Source: an uncultured Chloroflexia bacterium (GTDB taxonomy: Bacteria; Chloroflexota; Anaerolineae; Anaerolineales; UBA4823). From it: 64,000 bases of DNA. Location: assembly GCA_963736805.1 (NCBI GenBank), contig CAVTQM010000063.1, forward strand, positions 18,324 to 82,323, given 5' to 3'. A program made the translations under genes and the position numbers. Shown here piece after piece: positions 8,532 to 64,000 of this stretch. Numbering within the stretch: position 1 is the first letter of the stretch; each line of letters opens with the position of its first letter. The notes beneath the pieces are model-generated. The model did no database searches, was not told where the DNA came from, and worked only from the letters and a program-made list of their open reading frames with translations.

Positions 8532-8545
8532 AGAACAAATGTTCT
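8532..8545. promoter_or_regulatory. LexA operator candidate (Cheo-type SOS box, GAAC-N4-GTTC)
   Basis: Perfect 14-bp palindrome AGAACAAATGTTCT that directly overlaps the extended -10 element of the downstream cassette. Confidence 0.7.
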
Positions 8546-8553
8546 GGTATAAT
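8545..8553 (+). promoter_or_regulatory. Extended -10 promoter element (TGgTATAAT) of the GC-rich cassette
   Basis: TGGTATAAT at 8545-8553. ATG 8560 follows 6 nt later, which suggests a leaderless transcript. Confidence 0.55.
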
Positions 8554-8559
8554 CAAAAT

Positions 8560-9132
8560 ATGGACACTTATACATACCCCACTCTGAACCATTCCAGGAA
8601 TATGGATGATTCTCTTCAACTTTCCCCCCGCCAGCTTCACCTGGTGCTGGCACCGCACCGGGCTCAACGCCAGATGATGACTGTCTTGACCGCGCGCCTG
8701 GCAGTAACCAACCGGGTGCGCCTGGTGGATGCTGGCAACTGTTTTGATGGCTACGGGCTGGCACGCCAGCTGCGCCAGCGGACGTCGTCCTGGCAGGCTG
8801 CACTGGACCGGGTAAGCGTGGCACGCGCCTTCACCTGCTACCAGGTGGAAACGCTGCTGACCGAGTCGGTGGCAGACTTCTCGCCCGTGCTGGTGCTGAA
8901 CCTGCTGGACACTTTCTACGACGAGAACGTGAAGCTTTCAGAGCGGATGCGCCTGCTGGAAGTAAGCCTATCCGAGCTGCGGCGGTTATGCCGCTCAGCA
9001 TCTGTGGCGGTGAGCGCCAGTTTACCCAACCGCAACCAGCCGGGAGAATTGCTTGAAATATTGGCGGGTGCAGCCGGACAGGTATGGAGCTTTGAAGAGC
9101 CGCAGCCTGCCGAGCCATTGCGCCTGTTTTAA
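8560..9132 (+). CDS. Hypothetical protein, predicted RecA/KaiC-like core without a P-loop (ImuA-like candidate)
   Basis: The ORF-track ORF is 8524..9132. I prefer ATG 8560 (alternative 8602) because 8524-8553 is occupied by the operator and -10 element. Hydrophobic strand motifs alternate (LHLVLAP, VRLVDAGN, VSVARAF, PVLVLNLLD, ASVAVSA) and there is no GxxxxGK[ST]. The fold call is inference only. Confidence 0.5.
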   Translation: MDTYTYPTLNHSRNMDDSLQLSPRQLHLVLAPHRAQRQMMTVLTARLAVTNRVRLVDAGNCFDGYGLARQLRQRTSSWQAALDRVSVARAFTCYQVETLLTESVADFSPVLVLNLLDTFYDENVKLSERMRLLEVSLSELRRLCRSASVAVSASLPNRNQPGELLEILAGAAGQVWSFEEPQPAEPLRLF

Positions 9133-9143
9133 GGAGGTTCTTT

Positions 9144-9563
9144 ATGGGACGCACACTTCCATCTGTTACGCAAGTTTTTCTGAAAGAGCAGGAGTTTTTC
9201 CTGCGTTTCCGGCGTGCCCTGCGGCGCAGCGACCAGAAAGCACTGGACGACCTCTTCGCCGCGGCCCACAAGCACCTGGCTGCCGCAGCTTATGCCGCAC
9301 ATGCCCTGCCTTTCGAGGTCTTCCTGCTTTCGATGCTGCTGGAGGAACACAAGCAGGTGCTGCGCATGCGTTACCTGCTGAACCCCAGCGATGCGGCCGC
9401 CCTGGAGCAGCTGGAGCAGGGCGATTCCACGGCCTACCTTGATTCGCTCGCCGCAGAGGTGGAAGGGGGTGACCCTGCCCCACTTCGCACGCCTCTGAGG
9501 AGACGCAGCACCGGCCTCACCTCCTGGCCGGGTGGAGGCAGAGCCCCCGGCCTCGCCTCCTGA
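9144..9563 (+). CDS. Hypothetical small Ala/Leu-rich (predicted helical) protein with a Pro/Gly/Arg-rich tail
   Basis: 139-aa ORF with AAGGAGG 6 nt upstream. It lies 11 nt after the previous stop and 14 nt before the polymerase ATG. I recognise no family. Confidence 0.5.
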   Translation: MGRTLPSVTQVFLKEQEFFLRFRRALRRSDQKALDDLFAAAHKHLAAAAYAAHALPFEVFLLSMLLEEHKQVLRMRYLLNPSDAAALEQLEQGDSTAYLDSLAAEVEGGDPAPLRTPLRRRSTGLTSWPGGGRAPGLAS

Positions 9564-9577
9564 CCTGCTCAACTTGC

Positions 9578-11852
9578 ATGGCTGAACTCAAAGGCTGGCT
9601 GCTGGACCTGTTTGCTGATACGCACAGTGGGATTGTGCTCTGGCTGGTGGGTGAGGATGGGCAGCGCCATCGCCTGATTCAGGATTTCCCCATCACCTTT
9701 TATGCGGCTGGCGAGTCAAAACGCTTGCGGCAATTGTGGCGCTTCCTGCAGTCTCAGCCGGAGAAGGTGGAGCTGAAGCGCACCACGCGGCAGGATATCT
9801 TCTCATCCCAACCTGTGGAGGTACTGGAAGCCCGGTTGGACCAAACGGCAGCTCAGCCTAATCTTTTCCAACGTGTCGCCCGCGAATTCCCCGAGCTGCC
9901 TTATTACGACGCTGACTTGCCCATCACCACGCGCCATTCTGCCCTTTACAATACCTTTCCACTGGCACACTGCCAGGTGGAAGCAGATGAACGGGGTGCC
10001 GTGCAGGCACTGGAAGTGTTGGATACGCCCTGGGAGCTGGACCCCCCACCACCCCCTCTGCGCCTGTTGGCGATCGAGCCAGATGTTGACCCGGCACACG
10101 CAGATCCGCAGGCCCTGTACGTGCGCTCCATGAGCGTTTCCTACCGATTCAGCCTGGAACACCCCCGCCCGCTGCTGGTCAACCTGCGCGCAATTCTCCA
10201 GCGCCAGGACCCGGATGTGCTGATGACTGCCTGGGGCGACACCTGGCTGCTGCCTTACCTGATCGACCTGGCTGAAAAGTGGCGCATCCCGCTGCCCTTG
10301 AACCGTGAGCCAGGTCGGGAGGTCATCCGCAAAGATGAGCGCAGCTACCAGGCTTATGGGCAGGTGATCTACCGTGGCAAGCAGGTGCACCTGTTTGGGC
10401 GCTGGCATATCGATGGTTGCAATGCAATGCTGTTCCATGAGTACGGTCTGGAGGGGGTGTATGAGCTGGCGCGCGTCACTGCCCTGGCCGGCCAGGTGGT
10501 GGCACGCGTTTCGCCCGGCAGCGGCATTTCTGCCATGCAAATGGTGACTGCACTACGCCTGGGGATCATGGTGCCCTGGCACAAGCAGCAAGCCGAACGC
10601 CCCAAAAGTGCCCTTGAGATGATGCAGGCTGACCAGGGAGGATTAGTCTACCAGCCCCTCATCGGCCTTCACCGCGATGTGGCGGAGGTGGACTTCATTT
10701 CGATGTACCCCAGCATCATGCGCCACTTTAATATCTCGCCCGAGACGGTGGCAGACCCGAATGCTAAAGGGAGGGACCAGTACGCCCGGCTGGAGCGGGT
10801 TTCGGAGCTGGGTTTGTGGATCGACCAGGATACCGTCCGGCCTGATCCCCCAAACGCTGGCTCCCCTGCTGGACAAACGCCTGGAGCTCAAGCTGCGTCT
10901 GGCAGAGTTGCCCGCCTGGGACCCACGTCGCCAGACTTACCAGGCTCAAGCTACAGCTCATAAATGGCTGCTGGTCACCTGCTTTGGCTACCTGGGTTAC
11001 AAGAACGCCCGCTTTGGGCGCATCGAAGCCCACGAGGCGGTCACTGCTTATGGGCGCGAGATGCTGCTGCGCGCCAAGGAGGCTGCTGAAGACCTGGGAT
11101 TCACCGTGCTGCACATGTATGTGGATGGCTTGTGGGTGAAAAAGAAGGGATTGGCGGATGTGCCGTCGTTCCAGCCGCTGCTGGAGGAGATCACCACCCG
11201 CACCGGTCTGCCGATTGCCCTGGATGGAATTTACCGCTGGGTGGCTTTCCTGCCCTCCCGCATGGATGAGCGCGTGCCGGTGCCCAACCGTTATTTTGGT
11301 GTCTTTCAGGATGGCAGCCTGAAGATGCGCGGCATTGAGACCCGCCGTCACGACACGCCAGCCTGGGTGGCTAATGCGCAAAAGGAGATCCTCGATATCC
11401 TGGTGCATACCTCCGATGTGGAGGACCGCTCCACCTACCTACCCCAGGTATTAAGATCACTGCGCAGGGCGTTGACCAGGCTGCGCACATCTGGGGTGCG
11501 TGTGGAAGACTTGTTGGTCTCGCAGACGTTAAGCCGCGAGTTATCGGAATACCGCACACCCTCACCAGCTGCCCGGGCGGCGGCACAGCTGGCTGCGCGG
11601 GGTAAGCACCTGCGCCCGGGGCAGCGGGTGCGCTTCGTATATACGCTGGGTGAGCCGGGTGTGCATGCCTGGGATTTGCCCCAGCAACCTGAGCTGCGCA
11701 GCATAGACCAGGAACGCTACCGGGTATTGTTATTCCGTGCTGCCGCCACCATCCTGCAGCCGTTTGGTGTGGAAGAGGATGACTTAAAAACCCGCGTGAT
11801 TTCAAATGCATTTGATGTAACCTTTTTTGCACCGATGTATCTAAATAGTTGA
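9578..11852 (+). CDS. Family B DNA polymerase (archaeal/Pol II-like architecture) with degenerate exonuclease motifs; one frame disruption near 10828-10840
   Basis: Two overlapping ORFs (9578..10963 and 10677..11852) join into one PolB. Motif A is EVDFISMYPSIM. GLIPQTLAPLLDKRLELK follows after the frame switch. Motif B region is KWLLVTCFGYLGY and motif C region is VLHMYVDGLWV. Confidence 0.8.
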
Positions 11853-12122: not shown

Positions 12123-12211
12123 TATTAATGCATTTTTCCATGCGATTGGTCCATTCTGTCCATCTAAAATGGATAATTAGGTTAAAATAGCATATCTTGA
12201 AGGAGGCATAT

Positions 12212-12982
12212 ATGAAACTATATGTTGGTCAGTCAGCTCCCGATTTTACCCTTCCATCCCACTTGGATAAGGATGTCAGGCTCAGCGATTACCTGGGGAA
12301 AAATGTCGTACTGGTGTTCTTTCCAAAGGCCTGGACGCCCATCTGAACAGGCCAGATCCCGTCGTACGAAGCCGATACGGGTAAGTTCGCGGGATTGGAT
12401 GCCCAGGTCCTGGGCGTAAGCATTGATCACGTTCCCTGCCTGAAAGCATGGGCAGAATCTATGGGGGGATTAATTACCCCCTGATGAGTGATTTCTGGCC
12501 ACATGGCAGGGTGGCAAACTTGTATGATGTGTTCACGAGAGAAGGAAGGGGATTCTGAGCGGGCTATCTTCGTCATTGATAAACGCGGTTATATCCGCTA
12601 TATCGATATCCATGATATCGATCATCAGCCGGATAATGATGTTGTGCTGGAAGTGCTTCGTCGGGTCGACCCCGAAGCAGCATTGCGCAGCCCGGCACCA
12701 CCTCCCATTAATCCGGATGAGATCCGCTTGCCGCATGGGGGCGTGGTGATGTACTGCACCCGCTGGTGCCCTGGTTGCCGGCGAGCGCGTGCTTGGCTTC
12801 AGGCAAATAAGGTCGAATACATTGAGGTGGATATCGATGTCACCCCGGGTGCTGCCGACCAGGTGAAGAAGTGGGCTAATGGCACCCGCACAACCCCAAC
12901 CTTCGATATCGAAGGGACCATCCTGGTGGGCTATGACGAGAAAAAGGTCGAACAGGCCATCAAGGAAAAAATAACCAGGTGA
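12212..12982 (+). CDS. AhpE/Bcp-like peroxiredoxin fused to a CxxC glutaredoxin/mycoredoxin-like domain; in-frame TGA (12344-12346) at the peroxidatic Cys position; two compensating indels at G-runs
   Basis: AGGAGG at 12201-12206. Reads MKLYVGQSAPDFTLP...VVLVFFPKAWTPI-TGA-TGQIPSYE. The frame leaves at G6 (12463-12468) and returns at G4 (12548-12551), and the intermediate frame reads GINYPLMSDFWPHGRVANLYDVFTREGRG. The C-terminal part reads VMYCTRWCPGCRRARAWL...TTPTFDIEG. Confidence 0.75.
12358..12381 (+). other. Stem-loop starting 11 nt 3' of the in-frame UGA (SECIS-like position)
   Basis: CCCGU (12358-12362) pairs with ACGGG (12377-12381). An inner CG/CG pair extends the stem, with an AU bulge and an 8-nt loop UACGAAGC. 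Confidence 0.35.
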
Positions 12983-34433: not shown

Positions 34434-36291
34434 ATGACTGAAAACACGTTTCTGCACCAATTGATGACTTTACCCACCGTCCTGGAGGGCAGGCTGTCGC
34501 CGGATAAGCGTTGGGTGGCATTCACCTGGTATCGTTTCCACGAAAATATCGATGTTTTTCTCGTGCCTTCGGATGGCTCGCAGCCTCCCATTCCCCTTGA
34601 CCCATACTCCCGAAGCTACCGAGCTGTGAGTTGGACACCCGATTTACAGGCGGTTATCGTCTCTGAAGATCATGATGGGGATGAATATTCTCGCCTGTTT
34701 CGTGTGGACATTGGTCAACCCTTGCACATGCTCCCGCTAACAGAAGATCGCCCGGCATACTTTATCCGAGGCGGTATGCTACATCCGAATGGAAGGCACC
34801 TCTTCTACGGGGCAAATTTTGACTTTGAACAAGGAAAACTGATCGATCCGACCTGGTTATACCGGCATGATTTGATCTCAGGGGAACATGTTACCATTGC
34901 CCGTCCATCCATCCCCAATTGGCTGGTGCCACAGCTGAACCGCTTGGGAACGGATCTCAATTTACTCCCGGCGAGGTCAGAACCCCTCTGGCAGGCAGGT
35001 GTGGCTGGTGGATGTGGATGGTAGTCAGGATAAGGAAATTCTCAACTTTGGCGATCAGGTAAAAGTTACTGCAGATTGGCACCCGGATGGAGAGCACATC
35101 GTCTTCTTGAGTGAATCCACAGGCAAAGGACCACAGGATCACTTCAGCCTGGGTGTGTATCATTGGCCTACCCAGAGCACGCGTTGGCTGATAGATGACC
35201 CATCCCGGGTAATTGAGAATGATTGGGTCACCCGAGATGGCCTGGTGGTGGTTGACGAAGTGAAGGATGCTAACCACCTGACCACGTTCCTGGATATTAA
35301 ATCTGGAAAAGAGACTTGCTTCCCGCGCCTGCCAGGTAACCTGTTGCCGATTGGTCAGGCACCGGATGGGGTACCTGGATTGCCCTGTATTATTCGTCAA
35401 CTCATCCTGAAGAGCTGGTCCGGGTTCCCCTGGATGCCAAAAGGCCGGATGATCTCGGGATCCTTAACGAGGGTTTGGGAGCACACCAGCCTTTCTCCTG
35501 CACAGCTCACGCCTGCACAGGATTTCCGCTGGAAATCAGAAGATGGTTTACCGATTCAGGGTTGGTTGTATCAGGCACAGCCTAACTTAAAAAAGGCTAT
35601 TGTGTATGTACATGGGGGTCCAAGCTGGCATAGTGAGAACTGGATCAACCCTCAAATCCAATATTATGTTCAAGGGGGCTTTAACGTGCTGGATGTGAAT
35701 TACCGGGGCAGCACAGGGTTTGGCTTGAAGTATCGCCTGTCCATCAAGGAGGATGGTTGGGGCGGCCGTGAGCAGGTGGATATTGCCAGTGGAGCACTGG
35801 CACTGGTCCAGGCAGGGCTGGCAGATAAGGGAAAATTGGGGTAACGGGGACTCCTATGGAGGCGACAGCGCCTGGTACCTGCTTACTCATTATCCTCAGG
35901 AAATCTTTAAAGCTGCTGCTCCTATTTGTGGCATGACCGACCTGGTGGTGGATTACAACACAACCCGCCCTGATCTGCGCCCATTGAGCGAGGAGATGAT
36001 GGAGGTCGACCTGACCAGGTGCCGGAGCGCTATCATGAGCGCTCTCCGATCAATTTCGTTCAGGATATTCGTGGAAAGTTGTTCATCATCCAGGGTGCCC
36101 TTGACCCGAACGTCACCCCTGAAAATGTGCACCAGGTGCGGGAGAAGCTGGAGCAGATAAGATTCCCTACCAGCTATTGGTCTTTGACGATGAAGGGCAT
36201 GGAATTCACAAACCAGCCAACCAGGAAATATTGTATACTAGGCTGGCTGATTTCTTTGAGCAAGAGTCAAAGGATAAAATTTTATGCCTAA
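34434..36291 (+). pseudogene. S9-family serine peptidase (prolyl oligopeptidase / acylaminoacyl-peptidase type); at least 3 frame disruptions in this assembly
   Basis: Four collinear fragments. Beta-propeller N-terminal half, nucleophile elbow GDSYGG, and C-terminal QGALDPNV...HEF-like segment. Confidence 0.7.
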
Positions 36292-40162: not shown

Positions 40163-41091
40163 ATGAGTATCAAGCTGATATCCCAATCGACTGAAGTCAA
40201 TTCCTTACACCGCCGCCCGCGGCGTGTGGAATTCCTGATTCGGGGGTTTCTATTCTTTTGTGGGGCATTTTCAATCGTGACCGACGCTTGGCATCGTTTA
40301 CGAATTGGGTAAAGAAGCCCTGTTGTTCTTCCGCAACCCGGAGGTGGATTTGTGGAGGTTTTTCACGGGCACCAAGTGGCAGCCACAAGCGGGTTTTTCG
40401 GCGTCTTCCTTTGGTGAATTCGACATTGATGACGACAGCCATAGCCCTGCTATTGCACGACCACTCGGCCTGGCGGTTGCGATTTACTTGAGTGAATATG
40501 CATCTCGCCCACGCACGCGTCCCTCAAACCCATTCTTGAAATCTTGGCGGGCATTCCCACGGTTGTGTATGGTTATTTTGCGTTTACGTTCATGACCCCT
40601 GCTTCGTTCGATTTTTGGCAAGGATATTGTAGAAATTTATAATATGGCATCCGGCGGTAGTGATGGGTATTTTGATCCTGCCGCTGATCACTTCGATGAG
40701 TGAGGATGCTCTCTCTGCAGTGCCCGCGCGTTGCGTGAGGCGGCTTATGCGCTGGGGAGCTACCAAGCTGGAGACCGCCGTCAAGGTGGTGGTGCCGGCT
40801 GCCATTTCCGGGCTGGCGGCGGCTTTCGTCGTTGGTATATCGCGTGCCATTGGTGAGACGATGATCGTTGCGATCGCAGTGGGAGCCGGGCCAAACTTTA
40901 CCTTCAATCCCTTCAAGGGTGCTGAGACGATGACCGGTCACATCGTGCGCATCTCGGGGGGTGACCTGAGTTATGATTCGATCGATTATGACAGCCTGTT
41001 TGCCATTGGTTTATTACTCTTCGTTATCACCCTTGGTCTGAATATCATCAGCCAGCGTATCGTGCGTCGTTTCCGGGAGACTTACGAATGA
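40163..41091 (+). pseudogene. pstC: Phosphate ABC transporter permease PstC; several frame disruptions
   Basis: [26 protein letters not shown]-like and EDALSAVP..LREAAYALGATKLET-like EAA loop segments are spread over frames. The tail ISRAIGETMIVAIAVG...RIVRRFRETYE is intact. Confidence 0.75.
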
Positions 41092-42337
41092 GCACGGCTA
41101 CGAGTGGCACGCGCCTGCCTCCACACTTTGAATCCAACCTCCCACCACGCAATCGGAAGGCTTCCCTCTGGCGCACTCTTTTTCAACTTTCCACCACCAT
41201 CGGCATGATCATGCTGCTGTTATTGCTCTATAAGATTGTTAATGAATCCTTTGGTCTGGTAGCGATCGACAACAAGATCGACCCTGCCAGCCTGGCGGTG
41301 GACGGCGTGCCGATCGAGGAGCTTGACCAGGCGACTCTGATCACCATCATCGAGGAGAATGTCTCGAAAGGTAAGTTTCGCCAATTAGAGCGTGAACAAC
41401 CCCTTGCCGAGCGCACCTGGGAGGAAGTCTACCAGGTGGTCATCGATGATGTCGTCCAGCCGAAGGATATTGTCGGCACCTGGACTTGGTCGAGTCGCTC
41501 ACCCGCAGGGAGGAAGATTGTGGCAGAGGTGGAGCAGGAGCACCCCCAGGCTACCGTCAATTTCACCTCATGGATCGACTCGCAGTTCGTCACTTCTCCG
41601 CAATCCTCGGATGTGCTGAAAGCCGGTGTGCGCACTGCCTTGCTTGGCTCACTGTGGATTATCGCCATCACGATTATGGTAGCCTTACCGATCGGAATTG
41701 GCGCGGCGATCTACCTGGAAGAATACGCCTCAGACAACTGGTTCAACCGGATGATCCAGACGAATATCAACAACCTGGCGGGCGTTCCGTCCATCATCTA
41801 TGGCATCCTGGGACTGGCAATCTTTGTGCGTGTTATGGACCCTTAACCAGCGGAGCTATATTTGGTTTTACGGATCCGACCACCCAATGGGCGCACCATC
41901 CTCTCTGCCGGGTTGACCATGGCATTGCTGGTCTGCCAGTGTTGATCATCAACGTGCAGGAGGCTATCCGGGCGGTTCCCAACTCGTTGCGGGAAGGCGC
42001 TTACGGTCTGGGTGCTACAAAGTGGCAGACCATCTGGTATCATGTGCTCCCCAATGCCATGCCGGGCATTCTGACTGGCACGATCCTGTCGGTATCGCGA
42101 TCCATCGGCGAGACCGCGCCTGCTGGTGGTGATTGGTGCTGCCACCTACATCACCTTCGACCCAATGGCCCCTTCTCCAAGTTCACCACCCTGCCCATTC
42201 AGATCTATCAATGGACCTCGCGCGCGCAGCGCGAGTATCACAACATTGCTGCAGCGGCCATACTGGTGTTATTGCTCTTACTCAGTCTTAATGCCGCTGC
42301 AATTCTTCTTCGTAACCGCTACAGGCGGAGATATTAG
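41088..42337 (+). pseudogene. pstA: Phosphate ABC transporter permease PstA (with long N-terminal periplasmic insert); several frame disruptions
   Basis: IGIGAAIYLEEYA, INNLAGVPSIIYG, AVPNSLREGAYGLGATKWQTIW, SIGETAP. ATG 41088 overlaps the pstC stop. Confidence 0.75.
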
Positions 42338-44276: not shown

Positions 44277-45606
44277 TTATTTAGCCTTACGTACGATCAC
44301 GCGCAAGCCATCAACTCGAATTACCTCGACCCGCGTCCCGGAAGGCAGGCTTGCGCTTTCATCTTCCAGATTGGCTGACCACAATTCACCCCCAACCTGC
44401 ACGCTGCCGCTCGGAGAAAGGTCTGTTCTGGCGGTGCCTATCCGGCCGCTCATGCTTTCTCTACCCACCTTGATGGGAGCCCGTTGGGCACGCACCGCGA
44501 TCATCATGATCACAAAGAAGACGGCTCCGCTGACCAACGAGACCCCCACTACCAGCGGTACTGAGACGTGTTGGAAGCTGGGGGTGGCTGGGGTGTTGAA
44601 TAATACCAACGCACCAATAATAAGGCTGCCAATCCCTGCCGCAGTGAGTGCCCCATGGGTAGGTGCCTTGATATCCAGGATGAATAACACGAATGATGTG
44701 ATGATGAATAGCAGACCGAACCAGTTTACCGGCAGGATGCCCAAGCCATAAGTGGCTATTGCCAGGCACACAACACCGATGAAACCAGCCACCCAACCAC
44801 CAGGGCTGGTGATCTCAAAAATAAGAGCCTGGACACCGATCGTGATAAGCAAAAAAACGATATTGGGGTCAGTTACGATCAGGAGCGCCTGTTCGATAAT
44901 CGAGATATTTATGGGAACAAAACTGGCATTGGCGGTATGTAAGGTGACCGGTTGCCCGCCGACAGTCACGGTGAAAGCCGTCCAGCTGGTTACGCAGCTG
45001 ATTTAAATCGACCGAGATGAAATCGATCAACCCGGCTTGAAGGGCTTCACTGGCGGAAGCTGCGCTTGCATTCTGGATGGTATCTTCAGCCAGGGCGACT
45101 GCTGCAGGACCGCGTCTTTCGGTCAGGGAACGGGCAGCAGCAGCTGTGGCGTTCTTTACCTTGGCTTCTTCAGTTGTACCCAGATCTTCCCCCTGACCTC
45201 CCACCGGGCTGGCTGCCCCGATCATGGTTTTTGGTGCCATTGAGGACGCATGCCCTGCCAGGGTGATGATGGTGCCAGCGCTGGCAGCCATGGCTCCCGA
45301 TGGGGCGACATAAACGATGACAGGGACTGTGGAAGCGAGGATCATCTGCTCCATCTCGGTCATCGTGTCAATCGAACCACCAGGGGTATTGAGTTGAAAT
45401 ATCAATGCCTCTGCACCCTGGCGCTCTGCGATCTTAATCCCACGTGACAGGTATTGTGCCATGGCGGGGGTGATCGGACCATCTGCAGTCAGCACGAGTA
45501 TTTCCGAGCCTTCGCCTTGGGCATGAACCGGAAGGTTGAAGATTGGGCTCAAACTGACCAGGCTGAGCCAAACCAGGAATAGAATTCGCTTGTATCTCAT
45601 TTTCAC
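44277..45606 (-). CDS. NfeD-family membrane-bound ClpP-class serine protease; one frame disruption near 44900
   Basis: Signal peptide, then LNTPGGSIDTM and GAMAASAGT in ORF 44869..45606. TM bundle and C-terminal OB domain (GELWSA...GTRVEVIRVDGLRVIV) in ORF 44277..44969. Confidence 0.8.
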
Positions 45607-49415: not shown

Positions 49416-51978
49416 ATGATCCCGATTAAACTCACCATAACCGGTTTCCTCTCGTATCAGGAAACAACTGAGCTGGATTTTACCCAGTTCGACCTGGCGT
49501 GCATCTCCGGATCCAATGGGGCAGGCAAGTCATCCCTGCTGGATGCCTTCACCTGGGTGCTGTTCGGCCAGGCACGAAAACGTGACGAGACCCTCATCAA
49601 CCTGCATTCAAATGCCGCCGAGGTTGCCCTTGTATTTGAATACGAAAGTAATACCTACCGCGTGCAGCGCACCCTGGCGAAAGGCAAGACAACCGTATTG
49701 GAATTTCAGATCCGTGCTCCTTCGGATGGGAAGTGGAGAGCCTTATCTGGAGCTACCCTGCGCAATACTCAGGAATTGATCGAGCACACCCTGCGCCTGG
49801 ATTATGAAACCTTTGTGAACGCCTCCTTCTTCCTGCAAGGCAAGGCTGACCAGTTCACCCAGCAGAAACCTGGTGATCGCAAGCGCATCCTGGGCAGCAT
49901 CCTGGGGCTGGAAGTGTGGGAAACCTACAAGCTGCGCGTGATTGAGCGTCGTAAAGGGGTTGAATCAGAAATAACCAACCTGGATGGTCGTACAGCCGAG
50001 ATTAACACAGAGTTGAGCGAAGAGCATGCTCGCACCGAGCGCCTGGCTGCTTTACAAGCGGATCTGAAACACCTGGCCAAGGCACGCAAAGCCCAGGAGC
50101 AGCTGCTCGAGCAAGCCCGAAAGGTGGACGCCACCCTGGCAGAACAGCGCAAGCTGGTAAACATGCTCGGAGGGCAGCTTGAAGCATCCCAAAACCGGCT
50201 GAATGAGCTGGATGCTCGCCTTTCTGCCCGTAAACAGGAGCGGGAGGAGTATGCCCGTAAGGTGGCAAATGCGGATGAGATTGAAGCTGCCTATGCCTCC
50301 TGGATGGAGCGTCCGGGCAGAGCTGGAACGTTGGGATGAAGTGGCAACCCGCTTCATGGAGCATGAAATCAGGCGCCAGGCACCGCGCATGGAGATTGAA
50401 GCGGAAAAGGCACGTTTACGCCAGGAACTGGACCAGCTCCAGCAGTCTGAAAAACAAATCCAGGCTCAGAATGCCTCACGGGTGGAACTTGAAGCGCAGG
50501 TTACCGATGCCCGGGAAGCCCTGGATAGGGTTGAGCAGGCTATCAGCCAACGTACTGCTCTGGATGCCGACTTGCAGGCTGCCCGGCAGAGGCAGGCGGA
50601 ATCAAGGGCTGAAAATCCCCGTTTGAAAGCCGAGATGGACCAGCTAAAAGCCCGCATTGACCAGCTTTCTCAAACGGAAGGGGCAGCCTGCCCCTTATGC
50701 GGCCGGTCCTTAGAGACACATGACCGCCTCCAGCTGATCGATGAGATTGCCGCCCAGGGAAAGGAAATGGGGGATCGTTACCGCCTTAACCTGGCTTACT
50801 TGAAGGAGGCGGACCAGAAAGTGGGGGAGATCGAAGCGCAGATTGCCCTGCTTTCCAGGGCAGACAGCGAGCGGCTGGCCCTCACCCAGGCTGTCACCCG
50901 GCTCACTGGGCAGATTGAAGCCATTCAGCAAAAAAATGATGAGTGGGAAAAGAAAGGTGCTCCCCGCATGGAGGAGCTCCAGGCAATATTTGCAACCGAG
51001 TCTTATGCGCTGGACCAACGTAAAATATTGGCGGAAATCGACGATGAATTGAAATCCATCGGCTACGACGCAGCTGCCCATGATGCCAGTCGCCAATTGG
51101 AGACCGCTGCACGCACTGCTGAGGGTGAATTACGCCTTCTGGAAGCTGCGCGGGCAGCTCTACAGCCCCTGGAGCGCGAGATTGGCGAAACGCACAAGCA
51201 GCTGGAATCATCAACGACCGAAGTCTCCCATCTCCAACAGGAGTACGATGCCGTATGTGCCCGTCTGGCAGCCGCCGAAGCAGAAGCACCTGATCTGGAT
51301 TCAGCCGAACGCAGCCTGCATGAGCTGCTCGAACAGGAGAACAATCAGATATTGGAAGTGGGTGCTGCCCAGCAGAAGGTGATGGTCTTGAAGGACTTAA
51401 AAATTCGCCTCAAAGATCTCACCGCCCAGCGCGAGGGACTTGCTCGTCTGGTTGGGCAATACAAACAGCTTGAACGGGCATTTGGCAAGGATGGTGTGCC
51501 GGCTCTGTTGATTGAACAAGCCCTGCCGGAGATTGAATCGCGTGCCAATAACTTGCTTGACCGTTTAAGCGAGGGCAATATGTCGGTCCGCTTCGCCACC
51601 CAGGCACAATTTAAAGATAAGAAACGCGAAGACCTGAGGGAAACCCTGGATATTCTCATTGCGGATGGCGCAGGGACGCGGGATTATGAGCTGTACTCGG
51701 GTGGTGAAGCTTTCCGGGTGAACTTTGCCATCCGGCTGGCCCTCTCCGAGCTGCTAGCCCGGCGTGCCGGTGCACGCCTGCAGACCCTGGTAATCGATGA
51801 AGGCTTCGGTAGCCAGGATGCGATGGGCAGGCAGCATCTGATCGAAGCCATCAACATGGTCAAGCAGGATTTTGCTAAAGTGCTGGTCATTACTCATATC
51901 GAAGAGCTGAAAGATGCCTTTCCCAACCGTATCGAGGTGGAGAAGACTGAGCATGGCAGTCTGGTGAGGGTGGTATAA
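49416..51978 (+). CDS. sbcC: SbcC/Rad50-type SMC-like ATPase; one frame disruption near 50310
   Basis: Walker A GSNGAGKSS, long coiled coil, zinc hook CPLCGRSL, signature YSGGEAFR, Walker B LVIDEGFGSQD. Confidence 0.85.
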
Positions 51979-61807: not shown

Positions 61808-62312
61808 AGGTACCTCCTTATTCTGTTTGGATTGTAGCATATTTGGGGTGCATCATGGCGTTAAATTTCCATTCCCCAATAGTTGGTTTATACAACATGT
61901 ATATTTGCAGTCTAATTGCAAATATACACATTACCAGGAGGCACAGACCATAGAATAGTTGATTATAACTAATTCTGCAAGCTTACCTGAGGGTGATGGG
62001 AATGTTTGGACAGATGGTTAAAGGGGTATAAAATATGTAGAGCCTCCCTTTTTGGGACATTCCCCCCGAATCGCATTACTGTATAGGTAAGGATTGATTT
62101 ATTTTATTTTAATGGCAATATCATGCATACACGTTCAAGATATTCTGCCCCTTGTTGGTATCCAAATAAATATGCTGTTATTTTAAAATTTCTACGTATG
62201 GTTGTTTTTACAAAATCAAAATAGCCTATCAGAGTGGATGGGTGACTTCCATAGCAACGATAATATACTAGAATTCTTTTTTTATTTACTAGTAGACGGA
62301 TGAGATCATTAT

Positions 62313-63899
62313 TTATGGTAATGGCCGCCAAACATGTTCTGGAGAGCAAGTTGTTGGTCCACCATCCATAATATAACCTGTCCAGTTGGTAAATCCCCTT
62401 CCATCGATACTGATCATGCCATCATTTGCCACATCGGCATAATCGTTTAATATAGTGCTTGCAGAATAACAAAAATGAACATATTTTTCGCCAGGTGAAA
62501 AATCATAACTAATAATACTTCGGCCTGTGAGTGCATCTATGCCATCTGTCGGACAATTTATCGATCCATTAGTCAAGTCATAAATGCATAAATCACCGGA
62601 TATTTTGTATGCCTGATCGGTAGATAAGTAAACATAGGTATAGGCAATAGACTTGTCATCTAACATCCAGTGATAAATACCCGTGGTCATTAATGAAAAC
62701 TGATTGGGTATATGTGTATATGGAATACTGGTTAAGCATTTGCTTTTCCCTGATTCCACGTTCAGAATACACGGGGCATCCGTAAAGGCTATCCCGTAGT
62801 TTCTAAAAAAATACTCAGGATTCAGGTAAAGGATATACCGGCTGTCGTGAGACCATTCAATTGGACCAATATTCCCTTTATACGATTTAACAACATTACC
62901 TTCTCTTACATCTACAATAGTTAGCCTCATATCTGATATTTCAATTAAATCTACCGGTAGAGGCCTTCCCCCGATGATCGCTAAGAGGTTGTTGTTAGTT
63001 GGAGACCACTCAAACTCCATGTTCCAAATTCCATTATTGGGATCTGTTTTCCAGATTTCCTGCCCATTGCGAGGGTCGGTAACAATAATTTGGTATTCAG
63101 GTTGTCCTGTATTCCTCATAGCAAAATATGTATTATTCTTCGAATATGTGGATTCAGGATAATTTTTTGCCTGCATAAAATAAAAATCATTATTTGAATT
63201 GTCTTCTCGAATCACAAGTAAACCAGCTAAGAATAATTCACTATTTAGATTAATAAAGCGTGTTTCTTGTTCGTTGGTTTTATGCGTCGATACATCACCG
63301 TTAAGTGTATCAATCAGATATAAGGTTTTTTTATCAATACTAATAAATCCAAAATGACTATTATCGAACCAGAAAAAACCACCAACTTTCTGAGGAACTT
63401 GCATCTCATATTTTTCTCCAGTCGTTGAATTTACAAAAAGCAAGTGGCGTATCTTCTTAATATCATCTGTGATCAGGGCTGTAATGATCGTTGTATTGGG
63501 ATCTGAGATCCAAACTGGCAAATCATAATTGTAAGGAAAGGTCGGCGAGTTTGTTGTCGGAATTGGTATAAAGATTGAAGTGCTTGTTATTTTTTGAGAT
63601 CGTATTTTTGTTGGATTGAGTGACGGTATCATGGTTCTTGAGATTGTAGGTGAAAACGGCAACAGAGTCTCACTGACCTGAAGGGTGATATCTACTTTCT
63701 GGGTACTAATTATATTTGGCAATGATTTTGTTGAAGGAATATCATAATTATTACATCCTGATAGTAAAGGTACGGCAATGACCAGAAACAATATGATCCA
63801 CCTTTTGAATATCCATCCCCATGTTGAAATATAAACACCCCCGAAAACACTTAGCTGCAGAAAAAGGTCATCGAGAAAAATAAAGAAAATTTCTTTCAT
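62313..63899 (-). CDS. Lipoprotein with TolB/PD40-like beta-propeller repeats, encoded in an AT-rich segment
   Basis: Intact 528-aa ORF. Lipobox LLSGC after a hydrophobic stretch. Repeated W/Y-rich blades (EWSPTNNNLLAIIGG, IEWSHDSRYILYLN). Codon usage is visibly A/T-biased compared with the rest of the window. Confidence 0.6.
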   Translation of the reverse strand: MKEIFFIFLDDLFLQLSVFGGVYISTWGWIFKRWIILFLVIAVPLLSGCNNYDIPSTKSLPNIISTQKVDITLQVSETLLPFSPTISRTMIPSLNPTKIRSQKITSTSIFIPIPTTNSPTFPYNYDLPVWISDPNTTIITALITDDIKKIRHLLFVNSTTGEKYEMQVPQKVGGFFWFDNSHFGFISIDKKTLYLIDTLNGDVSTHKTNEQETRFINLNSELFLAGLLVIREDNSNNDFYFMQAKNYPESTYSKNNTYFAMRNTGQPEYQIIVTDPRNGQEIWKTDPNNGIWNMEFEWSPTNNNLLAIIGGRPLPVDLIEISDMRLTIVDVREGNVVKSYKGNIGPIEWSHDSRYILYLNPEYFFRNYGIAFTDAPCILNVESGKSKCLTSIPYTHIPNQFSLMTTGIYHWMLDDKSIAYTYVYLSTDQAYKISGDLCIYDLTNGSINCPTDGIDALTGRSIISYDFSPGEKYVHFCYSASTILNDYADVANDGMISIDGRGFTNWTGYIMDGGPTTCSPEHVWRPLP

Positions 63900-64000
63900 A
63901 ATGATTTATATATTTCTAATTGTCAGGAACTATAAAGGCGATAGAGGTTTATCAATGCTTTCCCATTAATTTAACCACATAATATCTAACTCAGATTAGC

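Follow-up and report, generated by a model that had tools for sequence, protein, structure and literature searches.

A probable SOS-controlled PolB2 mutasome operon on the chromosome of an Anaerolineae-type Chloroflexota bacterium

The window analysed here is a stretch of 64,000 nucleotides from an uncultured Chloroflexota bacterium (contig CAVTQM010000063.1 of assembly GCA_963736805.1), and all coordinates are positions within this window, position 1 being its first letter. We conclude with high confidence that positions 8532-11852 are a chromosomal, SOS-controlled PolB2 mutasome operon of an Anaerolineae-type Chloroflexota bacterium, in which genes for an inactivated RadA/Rad51-family protein (iRadA), for the ‘partner of PolB2’ (PPB2) and for the family B DNA polymerase PolB2 follow one another. 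The original prediction, made from the sequence alone, had drawn attention to the polymerase because of its missing exonuclease motifs and non-canonical motif C, and had missed the iRadA and PPB2 genes and the LexA box. It is because of these two upstream partner genes and the LexA box that the polymerase could be identified as part of a PolB2 (group G2) mutasome. The features of the sequence, their conservation, the order of the genes and the operator are read directly from the DNA of the window and its relatives.

Loci of this kind are already known, including in this bacterial class, and the window represents one more member with nothing essential that is different. PolB2, an inactivated RadA and proteins of the arCOG07300 family were tied into one operon by Makarova 2014 (PMC4104785), who also noted bacterial copies, some of them with lexA. 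A bacterial group, G2, was described by Kazlauskas 2020 (PMC7544198) as nested within archaeal B2; in this group ExoI is unconserved, ExoIII is missing, motif C has just one conserved Asp and D(K/R) is a conserved motif. The names iRadA and PPB2 come from Timinskas 2025 (PMC11791011), in which iRadA-PPB2-PolB2 is the sole order found in bacteria. That study reported an MGRT arm in PPB2, a loop before D(K/R) that resembles the Rad51 oligomerisation segment and clamp-binding motifs that lie mostly at the iRadA C-terminus; its heteropentamer (PolB2, iRadA and three copies of PPB2) and clamp tether are AlphaFold-based predictions. Its supplement lists operons of Chloroflexota/Anaerolineae as ‘1a (iRadA-PPB2-PolB2)’ with the motif HLYVDGIWV, abbreviated ‘YVD’. 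What our analysis adds to this literature is the conserved LexA operator at the promoter, a LuxR-type leader gene in related loci, and the DQ and P-K-S-A variants of the clade to which the window belongs. The main text of PMC11791011 does not mention the operator, as distinct from a lexA gene nearby, and no mention of the LuxR-type leader gene was found in the published papers on PolB2 operons.

The polB2 gene is held by two overlapping open reading frames (ORFs) on the plus strand (9578..10963 and 10677..11852), each of which matches Pfam PF00136 (DNA_pol_B). When joined, these frames give a 757-aa protein that is colinear with its closest relatives, which are intact 757-aa proteins from metagenome-assembled genomes (MAGs) of Anaerolineales and Chloroflexota with 85-90% identity, about 90% being the maximum among the deposited proteins found. 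The family is large, with more than 6,000 database relatives that form 846 clusters at 50% identity (E<=1e-30). Two short type B polymerase models were the best NCBIfam matches, the top one scoring 373 bits versus 25-62 bits for Pol II models, and Pol I models were also far behind. Among solved structures the protein matched archaeal PolB3 with an E-value of 1e-45 and Pol II with one of 8e-7. A fragment of Sulfolobales PolB2 showed 44% identity to the window protein across motifs B-C (E 4e-23) and has in common with it the family-specific string KW(L/I)LV..FGYLGY.N..FG.IEA. An AlphaFold2 (AF2) monomer model of a homologue of 90% identity (P0001) had a complete family B fold, with a predicted local distance difference test score (pLDDT) of 83 and a predicted template-modelling score (pTM) of 0.76, and its best structural matches, at template-modelling (TM) scores of 0.6-0.7, were to archaeal PolB3, the published sister group of PolB2. 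Judged by its synapomorphies and by the published listing of its relatives, the polymerase is very probably a member of PolB2 (group G2/B2).

To set the registers of the sequence motifs, we aligned the protein to solved structures of archaeal PolB, both pairwise and by profile, and counted residues in each column for 87 diverse PolB2 relatives of 29-87% identity. No intact ExoII, ExoIII or DTD was placed anywhere in the protein by these alignments. At ExoI, LAIEPD aligns to LAFDIE, so that the acidic positions are occupied by E167-P-D169 with the two acids swapped (EPD at 10076-10084); across the wider family these positions vary. At ExoII, AWGDTWL aligns to YNGDNFD, with Trp in place of the Asn and Leu in place of the catalytic Asp (WGDTWL at 10232-10249), and the position of this Asp is taken by Leu, Ile or Val across the family. 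No YxxxD of ExoIII is conserved in the relatives, and a displaced copy sought in residues 282-301 was not found there, the only conserved residues being E/D288 and E296. The segment that would bear ExoIII is shorter than that of PolB3 by about 45 residues (from ~258 to ~297 in the profile versus ~269 to ~353 in the structures). No recognisable proofreading site is left in this polymerase.

The polymerase motifs present a different picture, with fingers and palm being the best-conserved regions of the protein. Motif A (DFISMYPS, 10691-10714) contains Asp372, invariant in 87/87 relatives, and Tyr377, kept in 82. Motif B (KWLLVTCFG, 10962-10988) aligns to K-x3-N-S-x-Y-G with its Lys462 kept in all but one relative (86/87) and with Val for Asn, Thr for Ser and Phe for Tyr. 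In motif C, HMYVDG aligns to YGDTDS, such that YVD (11118-11126) has Tyr514 for the first Asp; this position is Ile in 43 relatives, Tyr in 19, Leu in 16, Asn in four, Val and Met in two each, Phe in one and Asp in none of the 87. The second Asp of the motif, Asp516, is present in every relative (87/87). PNRY stands at the KKxY position, with both Lys replaced. In some PolB2 homologues of ~1250-1300 aa (P0174, P0218 and others), motif B is interrupted at about T467|C468 of LLVTCFGY by an intein that contains a LAGLIDADG homing endonuclease. Inteins placed in this way typically mark sites where functional constraint is strong. Since the pattern of motifs is fixed throughout a family of more than 6,000 relatives, it is not due to chance, and by these alignments the motif losses are a fixed trait of the whole family and not a sign of local decay.

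Most of the motif readings of the original prediction were borne out by the alignments. All of the peptide strings that it quoted are present in the sequence, and it was right that ExoII has lost its Asn and Asp, that a YxxxD of ExoIII is lacking, that motif C retains the second Asp only, that KKxY is replaced and that no recognisable proofreading site can be seen. Two of the readings need correction in detail: ExoI is non-canonical as claimed, but the proposed replacement of Asp by Ala was two residues out of register, and motif B is altered as claimed, but the reading of TC for NS was one residue off.

Between the exonuclease domain and motif A lies the putative iRadA-binding loop, ERPKSALEMMQADQ (10595-10636), which includes Asp352 of the D(K/R) motif and is located before the GG motif. 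Asp352 was found in all 87 relatives, followed by Lys in 40, Arg in 31 and Gln in 12, the window having Gln, and the upstream residues follow the pattern E340-x-(F/P)-K-(T/S)-A-x-x-L-L. Residues 336-356 had a pLDDT below 50 in the monomer model, as is expected of an interface segment.

Directly upstream of polB2, and co-directional with it, are the genes of the two partner proteins, separated by gaps of 11 nt (iRadA-PPB2) and 14 nt (PPB2-PolB2). We compared 80 related loci and found that in 70 of these polB2 is directly preceded by iRadA-like (67 loci) and/or PPB2-like (70 loci) genes in the order iRadA-PPB2-PolB2. Single-sequence library scans of iRadA and PPB2 gave no significant match (the best were Pfam Rad51 at E 0.06 and NCBIfam Dmc1 at E 0.03). 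A profile built from 41 iRadA homologues matched Pyrococcus furiosus RadA with an E-value of 1.8e-7, followed by Dmc1 and Rad51 paralogues, and the Walker A motif GxxxxGK[ST], sought in 68 iRadA homologues, occurred in none. At 176-190 aa, the protein agrees with the published description of iRadA as a RadA/Rad51 homologue that has neither the N-terminal domain nor ATPase motifs. The C-terminus ends in LF in 40 of 67 homologues and fits [QP]x.L[FLW] in 42 of the 67; that of the window protein, EPLRLF, resembles a beta-clamp-binding motif. The true start of iRadA is uncertain because distant homologues begin at the position equivalent to the ATG at 8602, whereas there is an upstream in-frame ATG at 8560. 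The latter lies 6 nt past the -10 element, would add 14 residues (to give 190 aa) and could give a leaderless mRNA.

PPB2 begins with MGRTLPSVT, and an MGRT start was found in 70 of 71 homologues from related loci. An hhalign comparison with Sulfolobales PPB2 gave an E-value of 3.7e-5 with an alignment that runs from residue 1. In the AF2 model a free arm (residues 1-7) is followed by three helices (8-27, 31-51 and 56-77), and the C-terminal ~45 residues are variable and modelled with low confidence. The first 80 residues of PPB2 are the best-conserved part of the operon, with 70-89% identity even in loci whose PolB2 reaches only ~60%. Five loci (L021, L025, L026, L036 and L038) had no detectable iRadA or PPB2 upstream of polB2 and yet had a perfect LexA box ~55 nt before polB2. 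A 3.5-kb contig binned as a gammaproteobacterial MAG (L040, JASFKW010000251.1) contains iRadA-PPB2-PolB2 with ~60% identity to the Anaerolineae proteins; its presence in this bin is probably due to a binning error, or else to lateral transfer.

The promoter region of the operon contains the only GAAC-N4-GTTC palindrome of the window, the LexA operator of the Gram-positive type, which is reported from Dehalococcoides as well. Of 72 related loci, 48 had a perfect box no more than 2 kb upstream of polB2, as compared with five boxes in the other 534 kb of these loci, representing an approximately 36-fold higher density. In related loci the box is mostly positioned between TTGACA-like and TATAAT-like hexamers, and the arrangement of box and TATAAT was also seen in L001-L012 and L024. 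A simple promoter scan of the window did not call the promoter of the operon because there is no good -35 hexamer. This conserved operator provides direct evidence, at the level of sequence, for inclusion of bacterial PolB2 in the SOS regulon.

Many related loci have a further small gene between the LexA-box promoter and iRadA, which encodes a 128-157-aa protein with a C-terminal helix-turn-helix of the LuxR/GerE type (GerE E 3e-14). This leader gene is located ~450-900 nt upstream of iRadA in L015, L017, L018, L033, L037, L039, L043, L045, L050, L053, L064, L067 and L070, and the window operon is without it. We had considered lexA as the extra gene upstream of iRadA and rejected this candidate on finding the small LuxR/GerE helix-turn-helix protein in its place. 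In one close relative (L054:2414-3514) the operator is parted from the operon by an ORF that runs into iRadA as a single ORF of 364 aa; this looks like a transposase fragment and is a candidate for one. The features of the window operon are listed in Table 1.

Table 1. Location of the operon features in the window
Feature	Position	Strand	Basis and remarks
LexA (SOS) operator-like palindrome AGAACAAATGTTCT	8532..8545		only GAAC-N4-GTTC in the 64-kb window
Extended -10 element TGGTATAAT	8545..8553	+	adjoins the LexA box directly; read from the sequence
iRadA, inactivated RadA/Rad51-family protein, 176 aa	8602..9132	+	homologue profile search; ends ...EPLRLF
PPB2 (‘partner of PolB2’, arCOG07300 family), small helical	9144..9563	+	MGRT arm, hhalign, AF2
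PolB2 residues 1-419	9578..10834	+	N-terminal domain, decayed exonuclease domain, iRadA-binding loop (putative) with D(K/R) motif, motif A
Single inserted G	10835..10835	+	splits polB2 into two frames; DNA alignment with relatives
PolB2 residues 420-757	10836..11852	+	fingers (motif B), palm (motif C; PNRY for KKxY), thumb

Comparison with known systems places the operon closest to the published bacterial PolB2 mutasomes. It shares with these the gene order, the MGRT start of PPB2, an iRadA with no Walker A motif and a clamp-like C-terminus, the single Asp of motif C, the lost ExoII and ExoIII, the invariant Asp of D(K/R), the link to LexA and, with those of Anaerolineae, YVD. It differs in that its clade has DQ for D(K/R), and P-K-S-A in contrast to the consensus F-K-T-A. 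Archaeal PolB2/Dpo2 belongs to the B2 clade within which G2 is nested and likewise has no proofreading site, one Asp only in motif C, genes for the same two partners and a damage-inducible system. In contrast to the window operon, those of archaea have no single gene order and are under the control of Orc1-2 instead of LexA, motif C of Dpo2 is IID and not YVD, and the clamp partner is PCNA as opposed to the beta clamp predicted for the window operon. The exonuclease domain is also more decayed in Sulfolobus, whereas the window PolB2 keeps a near full-size (757 aa) fold.

The same comparison extends to systems that are analogous in role. ImuA-ImuB-DnaE2 (ImuC) follows the same plan, a LexA-controlled operon for an inactivated RecA-family protein, a specialized polymerase without proofreading and an accessory protein. 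However, the polymerase in the window is of family B and not family C, there is no Y-family ImuB, and iRadA matches archaeal RadA/Rad51 and not RecA/ImuA; for these reasons the operon is an analogue of ImuABC and not a member of this group. A variant of ImuA-ImuB-DnaE2 was accordingly rejected as a candidate, from the PolB2 literature and the profile match of iRadA. Escherichia coli Pol II (polB) is another SOS-induced, beta-clamp-dependent polymerase of family B with an ‘extender’ role, but works as one subunit, has an active exonuclease as well as the canonical DTD and gives a far weaker sequence match. A polymerase of the Pol II type was therefore also rejected, given the lack of intact ExoI-III or DTD in the window PolB2 and the weak Pol II matches. 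Pol zeta (Rev3-Rev7-Pol31-Pol32) is a multisubunit translesion extender of family B with an inactivated exonuclease domain, a parallel drawn in PMC11791011, but has unrelated accessory subunits, a canonical motif C and no RecA-family partner.

These comparisons suggest how the operon might function. LexA bound to the AGAAC-N4-GTTCT box, which adjoins the -10 element, would keep the operon off, and DNA damage would relieve this repression. PolB2 would then act as the catalytic subunit, a family B polymerase of full length with a decayed exonuclease site, in which the predicted metal-binding residues Asp372 and Asp516 are kept and Tyr replaces the first Asp of motif C. Sulfolobus Dpo2, which is also without that first Asp, polymerises robustly, has no exonuclease activity, is accurate on undamaged DNA and efficiently extends mismatched and lesion-paired ends (PMC8764526). 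Dpo2 is required for damage-induced mutagenesis (PMC7390963), and the same role has been explicitly predicted for the bacterial G2 enzymes (PMC8764526). By analogy, the window PolB2 would not proofread and would mainly extend mismatched or lesion-paired primer ends during translesion synthesis. The complex would consist of PolB2, one iRadA and a PPB2 trimer, in which the loop ahead of the invariant Asp352 would hold iRadA, PPB2 would point its MGRT arm toward the active site and the iRadA C-terminus, ...PLRLF, would be the probable tether to the beta clamp. Catalysis, the extender role, the architecture of the complex, clamp binding and induction by damage are all carried over from published relatives.

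Several points weigh against this interpretation. No assay of any bacterial PolB2 is apparent in the published PolB2 studies, such that activity is extrapolated from the Sulfolobus enzymes, and these are only ~44% identical in the palm/fingers fragment and have Ile and not Tyr at the first motif C position. By alignment, the clade of the window has DQ for D(K/R) and Pro for the FxxA-like residue of the putative iRadA-binding loop, and the PLRLF of iRadA has Pro where the canonical clamp motif, QLxLF, has Gln. Pairwise BLASTP searches of the window iRadA and PPB2 against Sulfolobales proteins produced no match, and hhalign of the iRadA profile against a single Sulfolobales iRadA produced no alignment; some archaeal groups of inactivated RadA are, in turn, detectable by HHpred only (PMC4104785). 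Finally, a single GAAC-N4-GTTC in 64 kb is not significant alone, as 0.69 occurrences are expected, and the weight given to the LexA box derives from its conserved position and not from its lone occurrence.

Alternatively, the protein might be a family B polymerase that has lost catalysis and persists as a scaffold with a structural or regulatory purpose, in the manner of ImuB or of Pol epsilon in its C-terminal half, and as was first predicted for archaeal PolB2. Replacement of the first motif C Asp, of the Asn, Ser and Tyr of motif B and of both Lys of KKxY is in line with this idea, as are the prediction published before 2020 (PMC4104785) and the apparent lack of published assays on bacterial members. 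We nevertheless consider a dead scaffold improbable because the catalytic residues are invariant (Asp372 and Asp516, with Lys462 and Tyr377 nearly so, in the best-conserved fingers and palm), because Sulfolobus Dpo2 polymerises robustly despite substitutions of the same class, and because motif B is the site of inteins with a homing endonuclease in some relatives. The second motif C Asp, moreover, is a metal ligand in family B polymerases (PMC8764526). The original prediction had left a choice between an error-prone polymerase with unusual chemistry and a dead scaffold analogous to ImuB. The first of these pointed in the right direction as regards a specialized mutagenic polymerase, while unusual chemistry is not needed, since the retained Asp is the metal ligand; the second is contradicted by the invariant Asp residues and the activity of Dpo2, and the ImuA-like element of the operon is iRadA and not the polymerase. 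It is more improbable still that the polymerase belongs to a mobile element (a casposon, pipolin or prophage) and replicates that element instead of serving damage tolerance of the host. Bacterial family B polymerases are often borne by such elements (PMC4104785), but here the flanks encode ordinary chromosomal proteins (a MacB-type ABC exporter, a YgaP-like protein, a peroxiredoxin-glutaredoxin and an aminotransferase), and integrase, Cas1 and terminal protein are all absent next to the locus. The conserved partners iRadA and PPB2 under a LexA box and the loss of the exonuclease, atypical for a replicase, also speak against a mobile element.

A separate question concerns the state of polB2 in the sequenced organism. 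The original prediction had noted a switch of frame near 10828-10840, which is real in the sequence and is due to one extra G: the window reads GAT ACC G TCC GGC where relatives read GAT ACC TCC GGC. This G was absent from all 14 close relatives in the DNA alignment (80-86% DNA identity, the closest related locus having 86%), and its deletion produces a 757-aa ORF with no internal stop. The ratio of nonsynonymous to synonymous substitution rates (dN/dS), computed against three relatives, was 0.06-0.09 upstream of the shift and 0.07-0.12 downstream. Other genes of the window are also split. The SbcC gene (49416-51978, plus strand; split as 49416/50203) has its AAA_23 N-terminus in one frame and the zinc hook and Walker B in an overlapping one, the NfeD gene (44277-45606, minus strand; split as 44277/44869) has a ClpP-like N-terminus and then the membrane and C-terminal domains in overlapping frames, and the peroxiredoxin-glutaredoxin gene just downstream of polB2 (12209-12982, plus strand) needs two frame changes at ~12440-12500. 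An assembly indel is, in our judgement, very likely the cause of the extra G, because the G is absent in relatives, because dN/dS is equally low on both sides and because at least three other window genes are split; if so, polB2 is probably intact in the organism. A real shift, which would make polB2 a freshly inactivated pseudogene or leave a truncated N-terminal product only, is unlikely. In its favour are the given sequence itself, with an extra G and two overlapping ORFs, and the location of the insertion outside any long homopolymer; the gene, however, has no further lesion, dN/dS is equally low in both halves, the close relatives are intact without exception and SbcC, NfeD and peroxiredoxin-glutaredoxin are frame-broken in the same 64 kb. 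The frames overlap and could be joined by a +1 shift at 10832-10836, which led us to consider a programmed ribosomal frameshift that controls synthesis of the full-length polymerase. Such a frameshift is scarcely credible and, as no relative has one, can in practice be dismissed: every relative examined has a single ORF at the site, and 10820-10845 showed neither a slippery heptamer nor a conserved stimulatory element. The split genes suggest an indel-rich assembly, which may have been made from long reads.

Some further observations were made in the window. Genes at 41088-42337 and 34434-35844 are possibly split as well. The peroxiredoxin-glutaredoxin gene contains an in-frame TGA (12344-12346) exactly at the position of the peroxidatic Cys (FFPKAWTPI*TGQ), followed by a possible stem-loop of -20 kcal/mol over 56 nt, and this TGA may be a selenocysteine codon. 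The region 62001-64000 has a G+C content of 0.36, as compared with ~0.52 elsewhere, and a 528-aa ORF (62313..63899, minus strand) with no Pfam match; it may be foreign DNA.

Here we have described a PolB2 mutasome operon, one of a class in which database names such as ‘DNA polymerase II’ or ‘hypothetical protein’ mask a three-protein translesion machine. The frame switches in polB2 and in neighbouring genes are a warning of indel errors in this assembly. Cultured Anaerolineae that are listed in the supplement of PMC11791011 (among them Bellilinea, Ornatilinea, Longilinea and Pelolinea) are suited to the biochemistry of bacterial PolB2. Polymerases of this class, long annotated as ‘inactivated’, are now regarded as a main mutagenic polymerase induced by damage in some archaea, and the same would by extension hold for several phyla of bacteria. 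For Anaerolineae, we lean towards a PolB2 mutasome that is a directly LexA-repressed and beta-clamp-tethered polymerase of SOS mutagenesis, with the operator in its promoter, often led by a LuxR-type gene and with a Tyr in its palm, and that may fill the role played elsewhere by Pol V or ImuABC.

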